Part shown: positions 1,320 to 25,309 of the stretch, piece by piece
Layout: each line of letters opens with the position of its first letter
Position numbering within the stretch: the first letter of the stretch is position 1
Assembly: GCA_947586825.1 (NCBI GenBank)
Contig: CANPXU010000005.1
Span: 1-58,475, forward strand
From: an uncultured Bacilli bacterium
GTDB lineage: Bacteria > Bacillota_I > Bacilli_A > RF39 > UBA660
Direction: 5' to 3'
Length of the DNA stretch: 58,475 bases
Made by a program: the position numbers and the translations under genes
Notes under the pieces: generated by a model
Seen by the model: the letters and a program-made list of their open reading frames with translations, nothing else
Database searches by the model: none
Told to the model about the DNA's origin: nothing

Positions 1320-2516
1320 ATGAAATGTATTCTTATGAATAAATATACTGAAGTATTAAAGGCAGAATATGATAGTGCTACTAGCGCTTTTACTAAAGTA
1401 TATGAAGTAATGAATATTAATTACGCTCCATATATTTTGAAAAATATTTACAATCAAGAAAATATAAATGATGATGCTTTTAGAACAAATTTAAGTGAAT
1501 GGTTTAAGGGAAGAGGAATCCCTTCATGGCGTGATAGATTAGATTTGCTATTATATAGATTAAATATTTCAGCTCCATATGAATTATTAGACAAAGCTTT
1601 TGGTTTATCTTTATCAGATCAATATTGGTTAAAACCCGATGGTAGCAATATTAATTATGATGATATTAATTTTTTTGATAATGATTTTGATTATGCTGAA
1701 TTCATGGAAGCTTCTTTATCTGTTAATAGCCCAAAAATATATAATGAGAATTCGTTAAAAACGCCAAATAATACAACTGATGGAATGCTTAAAAAAGCTT
1801 GGGTTATTGAAGGAGAAACTAGGTATTTAATCAAAGGTGGGTATAAAAATGAAACTTTACAGCCCTTTAATGAAGTATTAGCAAGTGAGATATGTAAAAG
1901 GTTAGGATTTAATTATGTTGATTATTCGCTATATACTTATAAAGATATGGTAGTATCTAAATGTCCATGCTTTATAACTAAAGATACGGAGCTTGTGCCA
2001 TGTCATCAAATAATAAGTGGTAGAAAAAGACATAACTCTTCAGCAGATTATGAAAATTATATAAAGATTCTAGAAGAAAACGGAATTGAAAATGCTCGCG
2101 AAAAACTTGAAAATATGTATATTCTAGATTTTTTAATATTAAATGATGATAGGCATTTAAATAATTTTGGTATTATAAGAGATGTTAATAGCTTGAAATG
2201 GTTAGATGTTGCACCTATCTTTGATAGTGGACAAAGCCTAAACATTGAATATTACGATGAAGAAGAAATGCATATTTCCGGAAATGGTCGATTATTTTAT
2301 GAAGTTAAGCCATTTGATGAAATAATAAAACTAGTAAAAAATATTAAAAGAATTGATATAACTAAGTTAGACGGTCTAGTTGAGTGGTTTGATAACTTGC
2401 TTCATCAGTATCAAAATATAACTAATTATTCAGATGCGAGAATTAATAAATTATGTATCCTACTAAATAGTCAAATTAATAAATTGAAAGATATAATTGA
2501 AAAAGCAAATAGGTGA
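1320..2516 (+). CDS. HipA-like C-terminal-domain kinase
   Basis: YLIKGG lysine motif, EVLASEI helix, DRHLNNFG catalytic loop, APIFDSG; SD GAGGTGAGG upstream. Confidence 0.75.
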   Translation: MKCILMNKYTEVLKAEYDSATSAFTKVYEVMNINYAPYILKNIYNQENINDDAFRTNLSEWFKGRGIPSWRDRLDLLLYRLNISAPYELLDKAFGLSLSDQYWLKPDGSNINYDDINFFDNDFDYAEFMEASLSVNSPKIYNENSLKTPNNTTDGMLKKAWVIEGETRYLIKGGYKNETLQPFNEVLASEICKRLGFNYVDYSLYTYKDMVVSKCPCFITKDTELVPCHQIISGRKRHNSSADYENYIKILEENGIENAREKLENMYILDFLILNDDRHLNNFGIIRDVNSLKWLDVAPIFDSGQSLNIEYYDEEEMHISGNGRLFYEVKPFDEIIKLVKNIKRIDITKLDGLVEWFDNLLHQYQNITNYSDARINKLCILLNSQINKLKDIIEKANR

Positions 2517-2518
2517 TT

Positions 2519-3478
2519 CTATTTGCTTTTATAATAAGTTAAATATTCTTCTAAAGTTAAATTGTTTTCGTAAATGAATGTCGCTGTATCAATACCAACA
2601 TAACGATAATGCCAGCTTTCTGCACTTTGACCTGTTATATATTCTTTGCCTTCTGGATATCTTTCAATAAAGCCATATTTATGAGCATTTTCTTTTATCC
2701 ATTTATAAGCATCACTTTCAGGAAATGTCACAGTAGTAAGAGCACCTTTAGCAAAGATGTCTAGAGCAAGGCCTGTAGTGTGCTCATCAGATCCTGGCCT
2801 TCCTATATTGTTATCAGCATATACTGTGCCATTGTTGTCTTTAGCTTTGTTATAAGCTTTTTCATGTTCACTATAAGGATAATAAGCAAAGTTAACGATT
2901 AGATAAAAACCTTGCTCATCAGCATCATTCCACATATTTAAGTATGCATCCCAGACTTCTTTTTTTACCTTAAAGCCATCACCATAAAAGTATTTTTGGT
3001 TCGTAACATCTATTAAATCATCAGGAACAAAATCTGAATCAAGTAAATAATATTTATTAACAAGTATTTCATTTTTTAAATCATAATCTACTTTGACAGG
3101 AGCTTCATAATATTCATAATCAAGATTTAGATTAACATATTCAATAGCTGTTTCAATATCCGTTCTATTTTCCTCCATAAATGTTAAATAACGATTATAG
3201 TTGCTATGAATATAATGTTCATTATTCATAAATTCCAAGAGATTTTCATCCTTCTTTTTATCTAATAAACTTTTTAATTCTGTTTCATTATAATACTTTT
3301 TTAAAGTGTTTATTTCTTTATCCGTATAACCAATTTCCGAAAGTTTATATTCAATCGTATTTTCAGCTTCGTATTTAGCGTGAATCTTATTATAGGATAT
3401 TATAGCAATGGTACCAAAGATGATGAAAACGAGAATAAACCACACAGTTTTTTTAAGTTTTAATCTTTTCTTTTTCAT
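2519..3478 (-). CDS. M15B/VanY-family D-Ala-D-Ala carboxypeptidase, N-terminal membrane anchor
   Basis: PGSDEHTTGLALD and ESWHYRYVG motifs; hydrophobic N-terminus. Confidence 0.85.
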   Translation of the reverse strand: MKKKRLKLKKTVWFILVFIIFGTIAIISYNKIHAKYEAENTIEYKLSEIGYTDKEINTLKKYYNETELKSLLDKKKDENLLEFMNNEHYIHSNYNRYLTFMEENRTDIETAIEYVNLNLDYEYYEAPVKVDYDLKNEILVNKYYLLDSDFVPDDLIDVTNQKYFYGDGFKVKKEVWDAYLNMWNDADEQGFYLIVNFAYYPYSEHEKAYNKAKDNNGTVYADNNIGRPGSDEHTTGLALDIFAKGALTTVTFPESDAYKWIKENAHKYGFIERYPEGKEYITGQSAESWHYRYVGIDTATFIYENNLTLEEYLTYYKSK

Positions 3479-11856: not shown

Positions 11857-13423
11857 AGTAAGACAAATTAAAGTTCCTGTTTTAAAAGATAATTCTGATA
11901 CTTTGAAAGAAAGTATTTTAAATAAACTAAGGATTCATGGGGATGAACTAAAAGATTATGCAATTTTAAAAAAGTCTATCGATGCTCGTGATAAAGATAA
12001 TATTAATTTTATTTATGAAGTTAAGGTAGATGTCTTAAATGAAGATAAACTTTTAAAGAAAAACCCTAATGATATTATTTTGCTTGAACAAAAAGAATAT
12101 AGTGCTCCTATGAAAGGAAATACTTTATTAAACCATCGCCCCGTTGTTATAGGAAGCGGTCCCGCGGGTCTTTTTTGTGCTCTTGTTTTAGCCGAAAATA
12201 ACTATAAGCCGATTATTATTGAACGAGGCAAAAAAGTCGAAGATCGAGTTAAAGATGTTGAACTATTTTGGGAAAAAGGAATATTAAATCTGAGTAGTAA
12301 TGTCCAATTTGGTGAAGGTGGGGCTGGTACTTTTTCTGATGGTAAATTAAATACCTTAATAAAAGATAGTGAAGGTCTTGGTAAAAAAGTATTAGAAACT
12401 TTTGTAAAATATGGTGCTCCCGAAGAGATATTATATTTAAATAAGCCTCATATTGGCACTGATCTTTTGCAAAATATTATCAGAAATATGCGTGAGGATA
12501 TCATTTCGATGGGTGGCACTTTCTTTTTTGAAGAAACTTTTGAAGATTTAGTTTTTGAAAATAATAAATTAAAGCAAATTAAAACTAGCAAACAAACTCT
12601 TGATACTGATGTGCTAGTTTTAGCTATTGGCCATAGTGCTAGAGATACTTTTTATATGTTAAATAATTATCTTGATATCAAATCTAAACCATTTGCCATA
12701 GGGGTTAGAATATCACATCCTCAGAAATGGATTAATGAAAATCAATATGGCTCAATGGCTAAATATTTACCTCCTGCGGATTATAAGCTAACTTATGAGG
12801 CTCAAAGTGGAAGGGGAGTATATTCCTTTTGCATGTGCCCTGGCGGTTTTGTTGTAAATTCATCAAGCGAAGATAAAGCCTTATGCATAAATGGTATGAG
12901 TAACTATAAAAGAGATGAGGCAAATGCCAATAGTGCTATTATCGTTACTATAGATAGTAAAGATTATGGCGATAATCCTTTAAGTGGCATTGAATTTCAA
13001 AGAAAGCTTGAACATTTGGCTTATGAAAAAGGTGAGGGCTTTATTCCTACCCAAAGATGGGAAGATTTTAAAAATAATACTTCTTCGAAAGCTTTAGGAA
13101 GTATTAATCCAATTTATAAAGGAAATTATCATTTGGCCAATCTTCATGAAATACTTCCTGATTATATTTGCCACGACTTAATTGAAGCAATAGATAACTT
13201 CGGTCACAAGATAAAAGGCTTTAATGATAACGATGCTTTAGTAAGTGCTGTTGAAAGCCGAACTTCATCACCGGTTAGGATAATGCGTGATGAAACTTTA
13301 ATGGCTAATATTAAGGGAATCTATCCCTGTGGTGAAGGGGCAGGATATGCCGGAGGCATAACTAGCAGTGCTATTGATGGCATTAAGGTAGCTCATAGTA
13401 TTATTGAAAATTATTATATTTAA
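11849..13423 (+). CDS. Uncharacterized FAD-dependent oxidoreductase (COG2509-like)
   Basis: GSGPAG, QFGEGGAGTFSDGKL, FCMCPGG, YPCGEGAGYAGGI; SD GGAG precedes ATG 11849. Confidence 0.85.
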   Translation: MLRVRQIKVPVLKDNSDTLKESILNKLRIHGDELKDYAILKKSIDARDKDNINFIYEVKVDVLNEDKLLKKNPNDIILLEQKEYSAPMKGNTLLNHRPVVIGSGPAGLFCALVLAENNYKPIIIERGKKVEDRVKDVELFWEKGILNLSSNVQFGEGGAGTFSDGKLNTLIKDSEGLGKKVLETFVKYGAPEEILYLNKPHIGTDLLQNIIRNMREDIISMGGTFFFEETFEDLVFENNKLKQIKTSKQTLDTDVLVLAIGHSARDTFYMLNNYLDIKSKPFAIGVRISHPQKWINENQYGSMAKYLPPADYKLTYEAQSGRGVYSFCMCPGGFVVNSSSEDKALCINGMSNYKRDEANANSAIIVTIDSKDYGDNPLSGIEFQRKLEHLAYEKGEGFIPTQRWEDFKNNTSSKALGSINPIYKGNYHLANLHEILPDYICHDLIEAIDNFGHKIKGFNDNDALVSAVESRTSSPVRIMRDETLMANIKGIYPCGEGAGYAGGITSSAIDGIKVAHSIIENYYI

Positions 13424-13455
13424 AAAGGATTGGTAATTAATAAGCCAATCCTTTT
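13423..13455. terminator. Bidirectional intrinsic terminator
   Basis: AAAAGGATTGG / CCAATCCTTTT inverted repeat between convergent genes. Confidence 0.8.
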
Positions 13456-13741
13456 AACTTACTATTTTTTTAGCTAGCTTTTCTACCATAGCTCTATCAA
13501 CATTAGCTATTTTAGCTACTTCATCTGCTTCCATGCCATGTTTAAGCATATTTTTAACAACTGATTTAATTCCTCGCTTTTCGCCAATTTCAATACCTTC
13601 AGTTTTACCAATTCTAATTCCTCGCTTTTCGCCAATTTCAAGATTTTCTTCCTGTACAGTTCTTAGTAACTTGGCGGTATCATCTTCCACTACATATCCC
13701 GCAGCTTTTAATCTTTCAAGTTCTTTATCAACATTATACAT
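13454..13741 (-). CDS. Free-standing copy of the Rpn C-terminal segment (RpnS-like small protein)
   Basis: DKELERLKAAGYVVEDDTAKLLRTVQEENLEIGEKRGI is identical to the tail of 13758-14582; own SD AAAGGA; 48-bp internal repeat. Confidence 0.8.
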   Translation of the reverse strand: MYNVDKELERLKAAGYVVEDDTAKLLRTVQEENLEIGEKRGIRIGKTEGIEIGEKRGIKSVVKNMLKHGMEADEVAKIANVDRAMVEKLAKKIVS

Positions 13742-13757
13742 ATCTATTCCTTTTATT

Positions 13758-14582
13758 TTAGTTATAATTATTTTTTGCTAATTCTTTAGCTACACTTTCT
13801 ACAATAGCTTCATCAACATTTGTAATATTAATTATATTTTTAGCTGTCATGCCTTTTTGAAGCATACTTTTAATAACTGATTTAATTCCTCGCTTTTCGC
13901 CAATTTCAAGATTTTCTTCCTGTACAGTTCTTAGTAACTTGGCGGTGTCATCTTCGACCACATATCCCGCAGCTTTTAATCTTTCAAGTTCTTTATCTAT
14001 ATCTTTCATAAACTTATCATCCTCCTTAAATTTTTTTAATTCTTCTCTTGTCATGGAAAGAGCACCTATATGTCTTATAAAATCTCTTTTGTCGCCATTT
14101 TCACAAAGCTTTTTAGCTTTGTCTAGGTTAACTTCATATATCTCTATATTCTTACAATATTTCTTTTTACCTAATTTTAATTTAACTTCATTTATTATAC
14201 CTAATGATTCACTTAATTCTCTAGTCAAATTGATTAATATATATACTTTATTAGTTTTATATAAATTTCCTCCATCTTGATCTTGGTTTGTTATATTGAA
14301 AAAATAGAGTAGATTTCTAAATATTACAGCTTGATCTAAACAACTATTTACTTCAATATCTATTCTTGTATCTTCATTATCAATTAATAGGTCTAATGTT
14401 TCAACTTTTTGAGTTGCCTTTATAACGGGTATTTCTTTATTAAGAAAAGTTATATTATTAATATCTTTACCTAATATATCTTTAAGTAAAATTCTTAATA
14501 ATATTTTTCCTTTTTCAGTACTAAATACAGCTTTGAATACTTTATCATTATATCCTCTTATGTCTTCGGTGTTATTATTCAT
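13758..14582 (-). CDS. Rpn-family recombination-promoting nuclease / PD-(D/E)XK putative transposase
   Basis: N-terminal DKVFKAVF, LDLLI...IDIEVN catalytic residues, IEIYEVNL, G-x-x-x tail repeats. Confidence 0.8.
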   Translation of the reverse strand: MNNNTEDIRGYNDKVFKAVFSTEKGKILLRILLKDILGKDINNITFLNKEIPVIKATQKVETLDLLIDNEDTRIDIEVNSCLDQAVIFRNLLYFFNITNQDQDGGNLYKTNKVYILINLTRELSESLGIINEVKLKLGKKKYCKNIEIYEVNLDKAKKLCENGDKRDFIRHIGALSMTREELKKFKEDDKFMKDIDKELERLKAAGYVVEDDTAKLLRTVQEENLEIGEKRGIKSVIKSMLQKGMTAKNIINITNVDEAIVESVAKELAKNNYN

Positions 14583-14644
14583 GTTACATTTTTAAAAGTC
14601 CTAATTATCTTTTGATGTTTAGAGCTATTTCCTCCCTTCTACTA

Positions 14645-14680
14645 TTATATATACCGGGTGAAGGCCAAATTTCCTTTTTT
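14645..14680 (-). promoter_or_regulatory. Conserved upstream element, copy A (before rpn)
   Basis: 32/36 identical to 24582-24617. Confidence 0.6.
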
Positions 14681-14789
14681 TTAAGCTAATTTTTTTTAAA
14701 AAATTTAAAAATTTGTGATGTAAAGTAAAAATTAGGATTAATATAAAATAATCTTCTTTTTGGTATACTAAAAGTGGAGATGATAGAAA

Positions 14790-15527
14790 ATGTTTATTGG
14801 TGAAAATCCTATTCACATTATTGTTCAAAACAAAGATGATATAGCTCCTTTAGTATTACTACCTGGTGATCCCTTAAGGGCTAAATATATAGCAGAAAAT
14901 TTCTTAAGTGATGCTAAATTAGTAAATACCGTAAGAGGAATGTATGCTTATACAGGATATTATAAAAATCAAAGAGTCACGGTTATGGGAAGTGGCATGG
15001 GCATGCCATCAGCTAGTATTTATGTATTTGAGTTAATTCATTATTTTAATGTTAAAAAGATAATTAGAATTGGTACATGTGGAGCAGTAAATCCTTCTGT
15101 TGATATAGGCGATGTTGTTTTAGCGGAAAAAGTATATTCGGAATCTAATTTTGCTTATACTTATAACAATTATGAAGGCCATGTAGTAGTGGCTAGTAAA
15201 GAATTAAATGAAGATATTAAAAGGGCTGCTGAAGAAGCTAATATCAAATTAACAAGTGGTATGATTACTACTATGGATGTTTTTGGACCATATGTAGGAG
15301 CAGATAGAATACTTAATAGAATTCCTAAAAAGTACAATATTATTGCTGAAGAAATGGAAGCCTTTGGGGTAATTCACGTAGCTAATACTTTAGGTTGCAA
15401 AGCAACATGCCTTATTACTGTTGTAGATTCTAAATATTCAGAAGTAGTATTATCAAGCGAAGATAGAGAACAAAAACTTAATACAATGATAACTTTAGCT
15501 TTAGATGCTATTGTTAAAAATAATTAA
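14790..15527 (+). CDS. deoD: Purine-nucleoside phosphorylase, DeoD type
   Basis: LLPGDPLRAKYIAE, GSGMGMPS, IRIGTCGA, EEMEA. Confidence 0.9.
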   Translation: MFIGENPIHIIVQNKDDIAPLVLLPGDPLRAKYIAENFLSDAKLVNTVRGMYAYTGYYKNQRVTVMGSGMGMPSASIYVFELIHYFNVKKIIRIGTCGAVNPSVDIGDVVLAEKVYSESNFAYTYNNYEGHVVVASKELNEDIKRAAEEANIKLTSGMITTMDVFGPYVGADRILNRIPKKYNIIAEEMEAFGVIHVANTLGCKATCLITVVDSKYSEVVLSSEDREQKLNTMITLALDAIVKNN

Positions 15528-23572: not shown

Positions 23573-24567
23573 GGATAGTAGATACAGCGGAACTTTCAGA
23601 AGATTCATTTGAAAAAAGTATTAGACCACAAAACTTGGATGAGTATGTAGGTCAAGAAGAAATAAAAGAAAACTTAAATGTTTTTATTAAAGCGGCTAAA
23701 ATGAGAGGAGAAGTACTAGACCATACTTTATTATATGGTCCTCCGGGAATGGGAAAAACAACTCTTGCTCATATTATCGCTAACGAAATGGGTACTAATA
23801 TTAAGACAACATCAGGCCCAGCTATGGAAAAACCAGGCGATTTAGCAGCTGTATTATCAAGCTTAGAACCAGGTGATGTCCTTTTTATTGATGAAATACA
23901 TAGACTTCCTAGCTATATTGAAGAAATATTATATCCAGCGATGGAAGACTTTGTTCTTGATTTAGTCATTGGTACAGAAGGCAAAAGCAAAAGTATCAGA
24001 ATAGACCTTCCACCTTTTACTTTAGTCGGAGCAACAACTCGTTCCGGAGATTTAACGGCTCCATTACGAGATCGTTTTGGTATTATTGATAAGCTTGAGT
24101 ATTATACCGATGAAGAGCTTAAGACAATTGTTAAAAGAACAGGTAACGTTCTAGGCATGGAAATCGATGACGATGCAGCTTTAGAGTTAGCCAGAAGAAG
24201 TCGTAAAACCCCAAGAATTGCTAATAGATTATTTAAAAGAGTAAGAGACTTTGCTTTAGTCGAGGGTGATGGTCATATATCACTAGACATAACTAAAAAG
24301 GCTCTTAAGAAGCTTAAGGTTGATGAACTTGGCCTTGATAATCTTGATATTGAATATTTAACTAGTTTAATAACTAAGTTTAATGGTGGGCCTGTGGGAG
24401 GAGAAACAATAGCTACTTCCATAGGAGAAGAAATATCCACTGTTGAAGATGTTATTGAACCCTTCTTAATGCAAGAAGGATTTATTAAAAGAACTAAAAG
24501 TGGTCGTATAGCTACATCAAAAGCTTATGAACACCTTAAAATTGCGCATAATCATTCATTATTTTAA
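23569..24567 (+). CDS. ruvB: Holliday junction DNA helicase RuvB
   Basis: [32 protein letters not shown]. Confidence 0.97.
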
Positions 24568-24581
24568 AAAAATTGCAAAAT

Positions 24582-24617
24582 AAAAAAGGAAATTTGACCT
24601 TTATCGGGTATATATAA
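24582..24617 (+). promoter_or_regulatory. Conserved upstream element, copy B (before the Bro-N pseudogene)
   Basis: 32/36 identical to the reverse complement of 14645-14680. Confidence 0.6.
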
Positions 24618-24679
24618 ATATAGAGGGAGTAAATATAGCCCTGATAAAGGAGGTTTTGATTATTGATAATCAAAATAAA

Positions 24680-25309
24680 ATGTATTTAATAAATAAAATA
24701 TTCAATAATGAGACGATTAGAACAGTTTGGGATAAGGAAGAGGAAAAATATTTTATTAGTGTAGTAGATGTAAAAAATAAGCTATCAAAAGTCTAGTATT
24801 ACTAGACAGTTGAAACTCAAAGATCAATCGATTTGTATAGAGCCAAAGAATATGACGAAAAATGGATTGCCCAAAAAATTCAGAATGTTCAAAGTCGCAA
24901 GAGTCTTACAGATATATGGCAATAAAATGGCGTTCATGAAGGCAAAGAGTTTGCTATATTAACTAATGAAATTTATAAAACTTGATCAGGAATGACTGCT
25001 AGTTAGTATAAAGAATATAAAGGGCTTAGAAAAGAGTCTTTAAGAGATAACATGGATAACATAGAAATATCACTAACAGACATAAGTGAAGAAGTAACTA
25101 AGAGATTAGCAAGTAAAACAAAACCCCAAGGTTTACAGGAAAATATTAAAGTTGCTAGACTTGGTGGTAAGGTTGCTAAGAATACTAGAAATGAAATAGA
25201 AGATTTACTTGGACAATCAATTGTTACTAAAGAAAATAAATTAAAATACGCATATGTTAATGAAAATAAAGAGATAGAACTAAAAAAAGGAGGATTAATA
25301 TGCTTTTAG
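24680..25309 (+). pseudogene. Decayed Bro-N / phage-antirepressor-like gene; 25052-25309 is its open 3' fragment
   Basis: IRTVWDKEEEKYFISVVDV, then after a deletion or frameshift RKSLTDIWQ*NGVHEGKEFAILTNEIYKT*SGMTAS*YKEYKGLRKESLRDNM with three in-frame stops. Confidence 0.75.

Follow-up and report, generated by a model that had tools for sequence, protein, structure and literature searches.

What is to be made of a nuclease gene that carries a strong ribosome-binding site and an in-frame start codon inside its coding sequence, and that is followed directly by a small gene repeating its own 3' segment? We address this question for the rpn locus on the minus strand of a 58,475-nucleotide (nt) stretch of DNA from an uncultured Bacilli bacterium of the rabbit gut (GenBank assembly GCA_947586825.1, contig CANPXU010000005.1, positions 1 to 58,475), here called the window. 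The window is part of a 1.2-Mb metagenome-assembled genome (MAG) with 30% GC, the host genome being put at ~1.2 to 1.4 Mb, and related records, also of rabbit-gut origin, are filed as "uncultured Bacilli bacterium" near Candidatus Coprosoma and Candidatus Aphodocola. From sequence evidence, we estimate a probability of roughly 0.78 that the locus is an operon of two genes belonging to the Rpn toxin-antitoxin or antiphage type, consisting of a nuclease, an antitoxin nested within its gene, and a free-standing second copy of that antitoxin.

In the Rpn systems described by Zhong et al. (PNAS, 2023), a short product, RpnS, binds the toxic long form, RpnL, and blocks it (PMC10400941). RpnL and RpnS share a long helix, the number of 4-residue repeats is hypervariable between strains, and neutralization requires that the partners have equal repeat numbers; one plasmid-borne Rpn protects against T-even phages (PMC10400941). 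Internal starts giving rise to RpnS were proven in Escherichia coli, and RpnS was also made from a Clostridioides difficile gene cloned in E. coli (PMC10400941).

The long protein is a PD-(D/E)XK nuclease of the PDDEXK_2 branch

The 274-amino-acid (aa) product of the window's rpn gene gives a significant match to PF12784 (PDDEXK_2) over its nuclease domain (E = 1.2e-15; 58.4 bits against a cut-off of 27.4), and the other rpn paralogues of the same genome likewise match this family. The protein also aligns end to end (residues 12 to 263, model positions 2 to 272) with TIGR01784, the NCBIfam model [quoted passage not shown] With E. coli RpnE there is a weak, colinear hhalign match (E 0.003, probability 10%). 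Pairwise and profile alignments with RpnE place D13, D64, E77, N79, and R89 of the window protein over D11, D63, E82, Q84, and R94 of RpnA, the residues that matter in RpnA mutagenesis (PMC5350276). Across an alignment of ten homologues reaching down to 28% identity (alignment A1), D64, E77, N79, and R89 never vary, and D13 is almost as constant, being present in at least 90% of sequences.

The AlphaFold2 (AF2) model of the full-length protein has an alpha/beta core in its N-terminal 150 residues, a helix that starts with residue 190, and, over residues 232 to 272, a bundle of three helices that closes the C-terminal end. Foldseek returned nothing for this model at E ≤ 1e-3, and the nonsignificant matches were enriched in PD-(D/E)XK nucleases (McrC, Can2, and cap-snatching endonucleases).

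A separate small gene repeats the C-terminal module

The original prediction placed an AAGGAGG Shine-Dalgarno (SD) sequence 11 nt before an in-frame ATG at 14009, giving an 83-aa product, and saw downstream a separate gene with its own SD in which a 38-aa core is identical, a 48-bp (16-aa) repeat is added, and the tail has diverged. The coordinates of the former are confirmed, as is the structure of the latter by alignment and repeat search. Residues 5 to 42 of the 83-aa and 95-aa proteins make up the identical core, whose DNA differs at 3 positions, all of them synonymous. The repeat search found 128 nt at 94% (13615-13742 versus 13883-14010) and, for the tails, 142 nt at 78%; as protein, the tails (the last 37 to 41 residues) are ~55% identical. 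The extra 48 bp, or 16 aa (RIGKTEGIEIGEKRGI), of the 95-aa copy form four 4-residue xxGx units, giving a six-unit array (EIGE KRGI RIGK TEGI EIGE KRGI) where rpn has two units. At 13567-13637, Tandem Repeats Finder reports three copies of a 24-nt period.

The same arrangement is found in a sister strain (L013), in which rpn and the small gene occupy the same site between a flavin adenine dinucleotide (FAD)-dependent oxidoreductase gene and deoD. The small gene of L013 (P0002, 76 aa) has two units against six in the window. The orthologue P0002 occurs in two other assemblies, and the small gene is intact at the syntenic site in three assemblies. Apart from the repeats, the window and L013 copies are separated by 3 synonymous changes and 1 nonsynonymous change, and a 1-nt poly-A indel makes their three final residues differ; the 16-nt spacer ahead of the gene is kept in L013 except for 2 nt. 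Given this intactness and this pattern of change, the small gene has been kept.

Beyond these strains, the number of xxGx units in orthologous rpn genes is 1, 2, 3, or 7. Downstream copies are present in the genus at a sister-species locus (L038) and at two paralogous rpn loci (L030 and L033), and neither of the two rpn paralogues of the window's own genome has one. In public data, a profile of the small module matched 10,887 of the 1.84 billion proteins of a library with an E value of 1e-3 or less. Among the best 147 matches, 89 proteins are no longer than 160 aa, and 85 of these 89 start with Met. Stand-alone copies are therefore common, even allowing for some fragmentary gene calls.

It is possible to see the 95-aa open reading frame (ORF) instead as debris left when part of rpn was duplicated in tandem, unexpressed or without a role, and similar to its parent through recency or gene conversion. 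The ORF did arise by duplication of the 3' part of rpn, yet it has its own SD, starts at the module boundary, and is intact in the three assemblies. The poly-A indel shifts its last three residues between strains, whereas the changes elsewhere are mostly synonymous (3:1 between strains and 3:0 in the core between copies) and the repeat array has changed in frame, by exactly 48 bp. Related strains lose such copies through recombination, and the two paralogous loci have none, but the same layout recurs independently within the genus, and short proteins with a Met start are abundant among the best profile matches. Finally, RefSeq calls the E. coli counterpart ypaA a pseudogene (K-12, NC_000913.3; L050, 7817-8002), although its product, RpnESs (YpaA), was detected as a protein (PMC10400941). 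We consider the debris explanation unlikely. The reading of the 95-aa gene as the remnant of a whole second rpn was rejected, as no trace of an N-terminal nuclease domain was found between rpn and the 95-aa gene, where the spacer has only 16 nt.

The small protein is predicted to be a long helix with a helical bundle

In the AF2 model of the 95-aa protein, a short helix is followed by a long helix (residues 20 to 67) that runs through the repeats and by two short helices that close a small bundle. This may resemble RpnAS as described in words, with its long helix through the repeats and small helical bundle, and it places the region of strain-to-strain repeat variation (1, 2, 3, or 7 units in rpn; 2 versus 6 in the small gene) within a predicted helix.

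The best similarities of the small protein, in sequence as in fold, are to helix-turn-helix (HTH) domains. A PDB sequence search gave only subthreshold matches to resolvase HTH domains (gamma-delta resolvase C-terminal domain, E 0.13), the best partial Foldseek matches were a serine recombinase (helix E plus HTH) and the IstA HTH (0.8 Å over 35 residues), and a profile search gave a weak TrmB match. The C-terminal module might then be mainly a DNA-binding HTH, and the small proteins transcriptional regulators or DNA-targeting subunits rather than protein-level antitoxins. None of these matches is significant, however, and since many antitoxins both bind DNA and pair with their toxin, DNA binding would be an addition to the antitoxin role more than an alternative to it. 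Zhong et al. noted the HHpred relatedness of the small module to HTH motifs, and in the characterized systems this same fold pairs protein to protein via the repeat helix (PMC10400941). A mainly DNA-directed role strikes us as quite improbable.

An internal start is predicted ahead of the module

The residues F191-M192, at which the 83-aa product would begin, are invariant in alignment A1. Pairing between SD and anti-SD at the window's internal site is calculated at −11.1 kcal/mol. Over 13 homologous genes, pairing ahead of the internal Met averages −8.5 kcal/mol, compared with −1.7 ± 2.6 at other codons of the same genes; 11 of them reach −7.3 kcal/mol or better, and the other 2 are weak (−4.6 and −4.8). 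AAG and GAG are minority codons in this genome (0.23 of Lys and 0.17 of Glu codons, respectively), and where the motif has changed from Gly to Glu, in the window gene and its orthologues, precisely these minority codons are used, giving a perfect AAGGAGG. The codon choice and the distance of −11.1 from the background together argue that the internal SD is more than a product of chance.

The free-standing genes of the genus point to the same boundary. Both small genes of L038 (Ss1 and Ss2) and that of L033 begin exactly at the internal Met, and the sequence 5' of their ATG is derived from the internal SD region; the L030 small gene begins about one residue from the internal Met, with an SD unrelated to the internal one. 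The start of rpn itself has no SD (dG −3.5), and the full-length start of the orthologue likewise lacks one. The predicted balance, with no SD at the full-length ATG and a maximal one at M192, is a weak-toxin, strong-antitoxin arrangement of the kind that a toxin-antitoxin pair would need.

That the internal SD and ATG are a mere by-product of the conserved Lys-Glu/Gly-Asp-Asp-x-Phe-Met residues, with the full-length and separate 95-aa proteins as the only products, is very improbable in our judgment: K-[G/E]-D-D-[K/E]-F-M is indeed conserved as protein, its K, G, E, and D codons are purine-rich and easily SD-like, 2 of the 13 homologues pair weakly, and AGGAGG with an in-frame ATG occurs 12 times within long ORFs of this genome, but the Gly-to-Glu change comes with the rare AAG GAG that strengthens the SD, 3 of the 4 free-standing descendants (all except L030) carry 5' sequence from the internal SD region, the full-length start is the one without an SD, and internal starts were proven in E. 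coli and for one C. difficile rpn gene (PMC10400941).

Layout of the operon and proposed mechanism

No terminator was found between rpn and the 95-aa gene, and a hairpin with a U-run lies directly after the latter (Table 1); the two genes therefore form one operon. Direct folding of the hairpin gives dG −12.5 and z −3.3, and the structure is common to the convergent FAD-oxidoreductase gene. A consensus terminator scan did not pick it up because its loop of 11 nt exceeds 8 nt. The AAAGGA in the 16-nt spacer stands 6 nt ahead of the ATG of the small gene. A consensus scan for an internal promoter returned 10 sites against 9.1 expected, which is uninformative at 30% GC.

Table 1. Features of the rpn locus (positions are those of the window)
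Feature	Coordinates	Strand	Description
rpn long form (RpnL-like)	14582..13758	minus	274 aa; PD-(D/E)XK nuclease, PDDEXK_2 / TIGR01784 "Rpn family" branch
Internal Shine-Dalgarno AAGGAGG	14027..14021	minus	codons AAG GAG (K-E); 11 nt (ATGATAAGTTT) to ATG
Internal ATG (M192)	14009..14007	minus	in frame with rpn
Predicted RpnS-like product	13758..14009	minus	83 aa: 34-aa head, two xxGx units (EIGE KRGI, 13884-13907), three-helix HTH-like tail
Spacer between rpn and small gene	13742..13757	minus	16 nt, after rpn TAA; carries SD AAAGGA (13748-13753)
Free-standing second copy (RpnSs-like)	13454..13741	minus	95 aa: same head, six xxGx units, diverged HTH-like tail
Small-gene repeat array	13568..13639	minus	six 4-residue units = 24-nt period x 3; extra 48 bp at ~13568-13615, absent from rpn and from the sister strain
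Intrinsic terminator hairpin	13418..13455	minus	11-bp stem, 11-nt loop, U-run, directly 3' of small gene
rpn 5' region	14583..14700	minus	~100-nt element recurring at ~24540-24680

From this anatomy and the published systems, we infer translation from M192, toxicity of the long form, its neutralization, and a part in phage defense. RpnL, as a PD-(D/E)XK DNA endonuclease toxic on its own, would be made at a low level from a start essentially without an SD, while the strong internal SD and ATG would yield abundant 83-aa RpnS. RpnS would pair with the identical module in RpnL and keep the nuclease inactive until a trigger arrives, presumably phage infection. The 95-aa RpnSs would be cotranscribed with rpn, up to the terminator, and may serve as a variant specificity module or a spare cassette; through recombination with rpn across the near-identical 128-nt head, its tail could take the place of that of the nuclease. 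RpnSs has six units against two, and the equal-repeat rule, if it holds here, makes it an improbable cognate inhibitor for the RpnL encoded next to it in the window's strain, whereas the two-unit allele found in the sister strain could be one.

A number of observations weigh against an Rpn toxin-antitoxin operon. The TIGR01784 score of the long protein (50.1 bits) falls 2 bits below the curated cut-off of 52.1, and PF04754 (YhgA/Transposase_31), the family of the characterized E. coli Rpn proteins, does not match it at E ≤ 1 and has zero matches across the whole genome. The equivalent of RpnA Q84 is Asn79, invariant in this clade; in RpnA itself, Q84A is still toxic and Q84K is dead (PMC5350276). 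Zhong et al. equated the free-standing RpnS genes of some species with DUF4351 (PF14261) (PMC10400941), a family that does not match the 95-aa protein even at E ≤ 1 and that has no match in the long protein either. Foldseek with the 95-aa model gave nothing at E ≤ 1e-3, the RpnAS crystal structure is not among its top 50 matches and did not come up with the full-length model either, and both AF2 models are of moderate confidence only (predicted local distance difference test scores of 72.5 for the 95-aa protein and 66.7 for the full-length protein). At the internal start, the 11-nt distance from SD to ATG is close to the upper limit of what is usual, and the start lies 34 residues ahead of the repeats, compared with 8 to 20 in published RpnS proteins. 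The SD-like stretch also partly overlaps the conserved K-[G/E]-D-D residues, and part of its conservation could therefore be protein level. As for the setting, the neighbors, the FAD-dependent oxidoreductase gene and deoD, are housekeeping genes with no defense island around them, and the nuclease has no PADLOC match, the small protein only weak ones at chance level.

Exchange of C-terminal cassettes in a sister species

In a sister species, one locus (L038) has an rpn gene of 267 aa with one unit, followed by two small genes, Ss1 (100 aa, seven units) and Ss2 (107 aa, nine units). Two loci from other samples (L036 and L037), more than 99% identical to L038, have instead an rpn of 291 aa with a seven-unit tail and only the 107-aa gene downstream. 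The breakpoint between the two forms falls within nt 53 to 95 of the head. Judged from these sequences, the L036/L037 allele is evidently the result of a homologous crossover that fused the downstream Ss1 cassette onto the nuclease.

Heads and tails of the module have had different histories. Head identity is 0.91 to 1.0 within a genome but only ~0.6 when species are compared. The tails of rpn are orthologous from one species to another (0.73), whereas those of the small genes are divergent (0.33 to 0.55). Near-identical heads within a genome, combined with divergent tails, indicate concerted evolution of the head. We also considered whether the window's small gene is the orthologue of the sister species' second small gene and rejected this; since their tail identity is only 0.33, the two are probably independent in origin.

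These observations allow a further, tentative proposal, which we regard as possible but rather doubtful: the downstream small genes may act as a cassette store for switching the C-terminal specificity module of the nuclease, with recombination taking place through the head, which gene conversion would keep near-identical. One crossover would be enough to give RpnL, and with it the nested RpnS, another repeat length and another tail in one step. The L038 and L036/L037 allele pair and the homogenized heads are the traces to be expected of such switching. In Zhong et al., fusion figures solely as a route of loss (PMC10400941). If the proposal is true, the cassette store would amount to variation of a defense toxin in the style of silent cassettes.

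Genomic setting and neighboring elements

The rpn gene behaves as an accessory gene, being present in 6 of the 22 genomes of the genus. In a close relative without it at this site (G018; L053, G018:C11 ~1432-1501), 68 nt separate the FAD-oxidoreductase gene from deoD, where the window has 13423-14790, and the promoter-proximal sequence of deoD is conserved. The block of rpn and small gene (~1.3 kb) is therefore an insertion/deletion polymorphism. In a remoter species of the genus, a distant Rpn homologue (26% identity; L066, G003:C8, 2419-3231) adjoins deoD in divergent orientation, and rpn genes may have settled beside deoD more than once.

Many rpn copies in the related MAGs lie at contig ends (for example G021:C89:2-598, G018:C15:73-621, and G019:C7:70-627). 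This suggests that the assemblies break at multicopy rpn sequences and that the true number of copies is higher than counted. One of the paralogues in the window's own genome (contig C42, L002, 1308-2207) has directly upstream a gene for a 349-aa reverse transcriptase (2343-3392, minus strand; PF00078, 4.6e-16, YMDD), itself preceded by a 126-aa ORF resembling a four-helix-bundle accessory protein. Reverse transcriptase, ORF, and rpn paralogue might together be a retroelement, a diversity-generating module, or a defense module.

Upstream of the window's rpn, an element of ~100 nt (14583-14700, minus) recurs 10 kb away (24540-24680, plus) with 80% column identity. It contains AAAAAAGGAAATTTG(G/A)CCTT..GGTATATATAA and a GGGAG box, and its two copies precede rpn, whose ATG follows ~55 nt further on, and another accessory gene. 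Such an element may be a shared promoter or leader. The FAD-dependent oxidoreductase is encoded by one ORF of 529 aa in the window but by two overlapping ones, of 264 and 271 aa, in L013 (524-2096), owing either to a frameshift or to a fault in the assembly.

Relation to known Rpn systems

The original prediction called this architecture undescribed, and on that point it was mistaken. Separate downstream RpnS genes have been published as rpnESs, which is ypaA, and as rpnCSs in some E. coli strains, each Ss copy having arisen independently from the rpn upstream of it; such copies can disappear when they are deleted or become fused to the N-terminal domain of rpn (PMC10400941). Koonin's commentary likewise describes downstream second copies (PMC10400984). 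The E. coli K-12 locus, when read alongside the window, has the same pattern: ypaA begins 12 nt after rpnE, behind AAGGAG, and the first 17 residues of YpaA equal RpnE from M244, after which come an added unit (EGKL) and a tail that has diverged further. The broader part of the prediction, a nuclease with a nested antitoxin and an extragenic copy of possibly different specificity, fits both the comparative evidence and the published long, short, and extra-short (L/S/Ss) model. The gene itself belongs to PF12784 and not to PF04754, the enterobacterial YhgA family.

What the locus adds is breadth. It extends the L/S/Ss layout to the PDDEXK_2 branch and to a lineage of uncultured Bacilli from the gut that have reduced genomes. 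The conserved internal Met, the SD, and the boundaries of free-standing copies offer a sequence-only route to annotating a nested antitoxin, where annotation pipelines often overlook small genes of this kind or label them pseudogenes, as RefSeq does with ypaA. The natural allele pairs, with a small gene of 2 versus 6 units and a nuclease tail of 1 versus 7, are well suited to testing the equal-repeat rule, and we regard these pairs and the head-mediated exchange of cassettes as the most useful by-products of the analysis.

Compared with the characterized systems, the window locus differs in several respects. The PF12784 gene shares ~20% identity with the PF04754 gene rpnE of E. coli, and it has Asn at the Q84 position of RpnA. 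Its modules are longer, at 83 to 95 aa against ~56 to 61 aa for RpnE-S and YpaA, and a head of 34 residues precedes their repeats. The host also differs from E. coli, being an uncultured gut Bacilli bacterium with a small genome. The 95-aa protein is set apart from stand-alone DUF4351 proteins by its lack of a PF14261 match, and the long protein, although it aligns with the TIGR01784 model from end to end, scores just under the cut-off.

The likenesses concern the design itself. C. difficile Rpn and the Gram-positive TIGR01784 homologues share with the window a low-GC host and variation in xxGx repeats. As in the rpnE and rpnC systems, the downstream copy here comes from its own upstream gene, with a head closest to that gene's own S module, and loss by fusion to the nuclease domain is seen in the sister species. 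The closest parallel is E. coli rpnE-ypaA: in both loci, an in-frame internal SD and start precede a variable C-terminal module, a separate small gene with its own SD follows after a spacer of 12 to 16 nt, and this gene has an identical head, another repeat number (+1 unit in YpaA, +4 in the window), and a diverged tail. The layout is a further instance of the known L/S/Ss design rather than a new mechanism.

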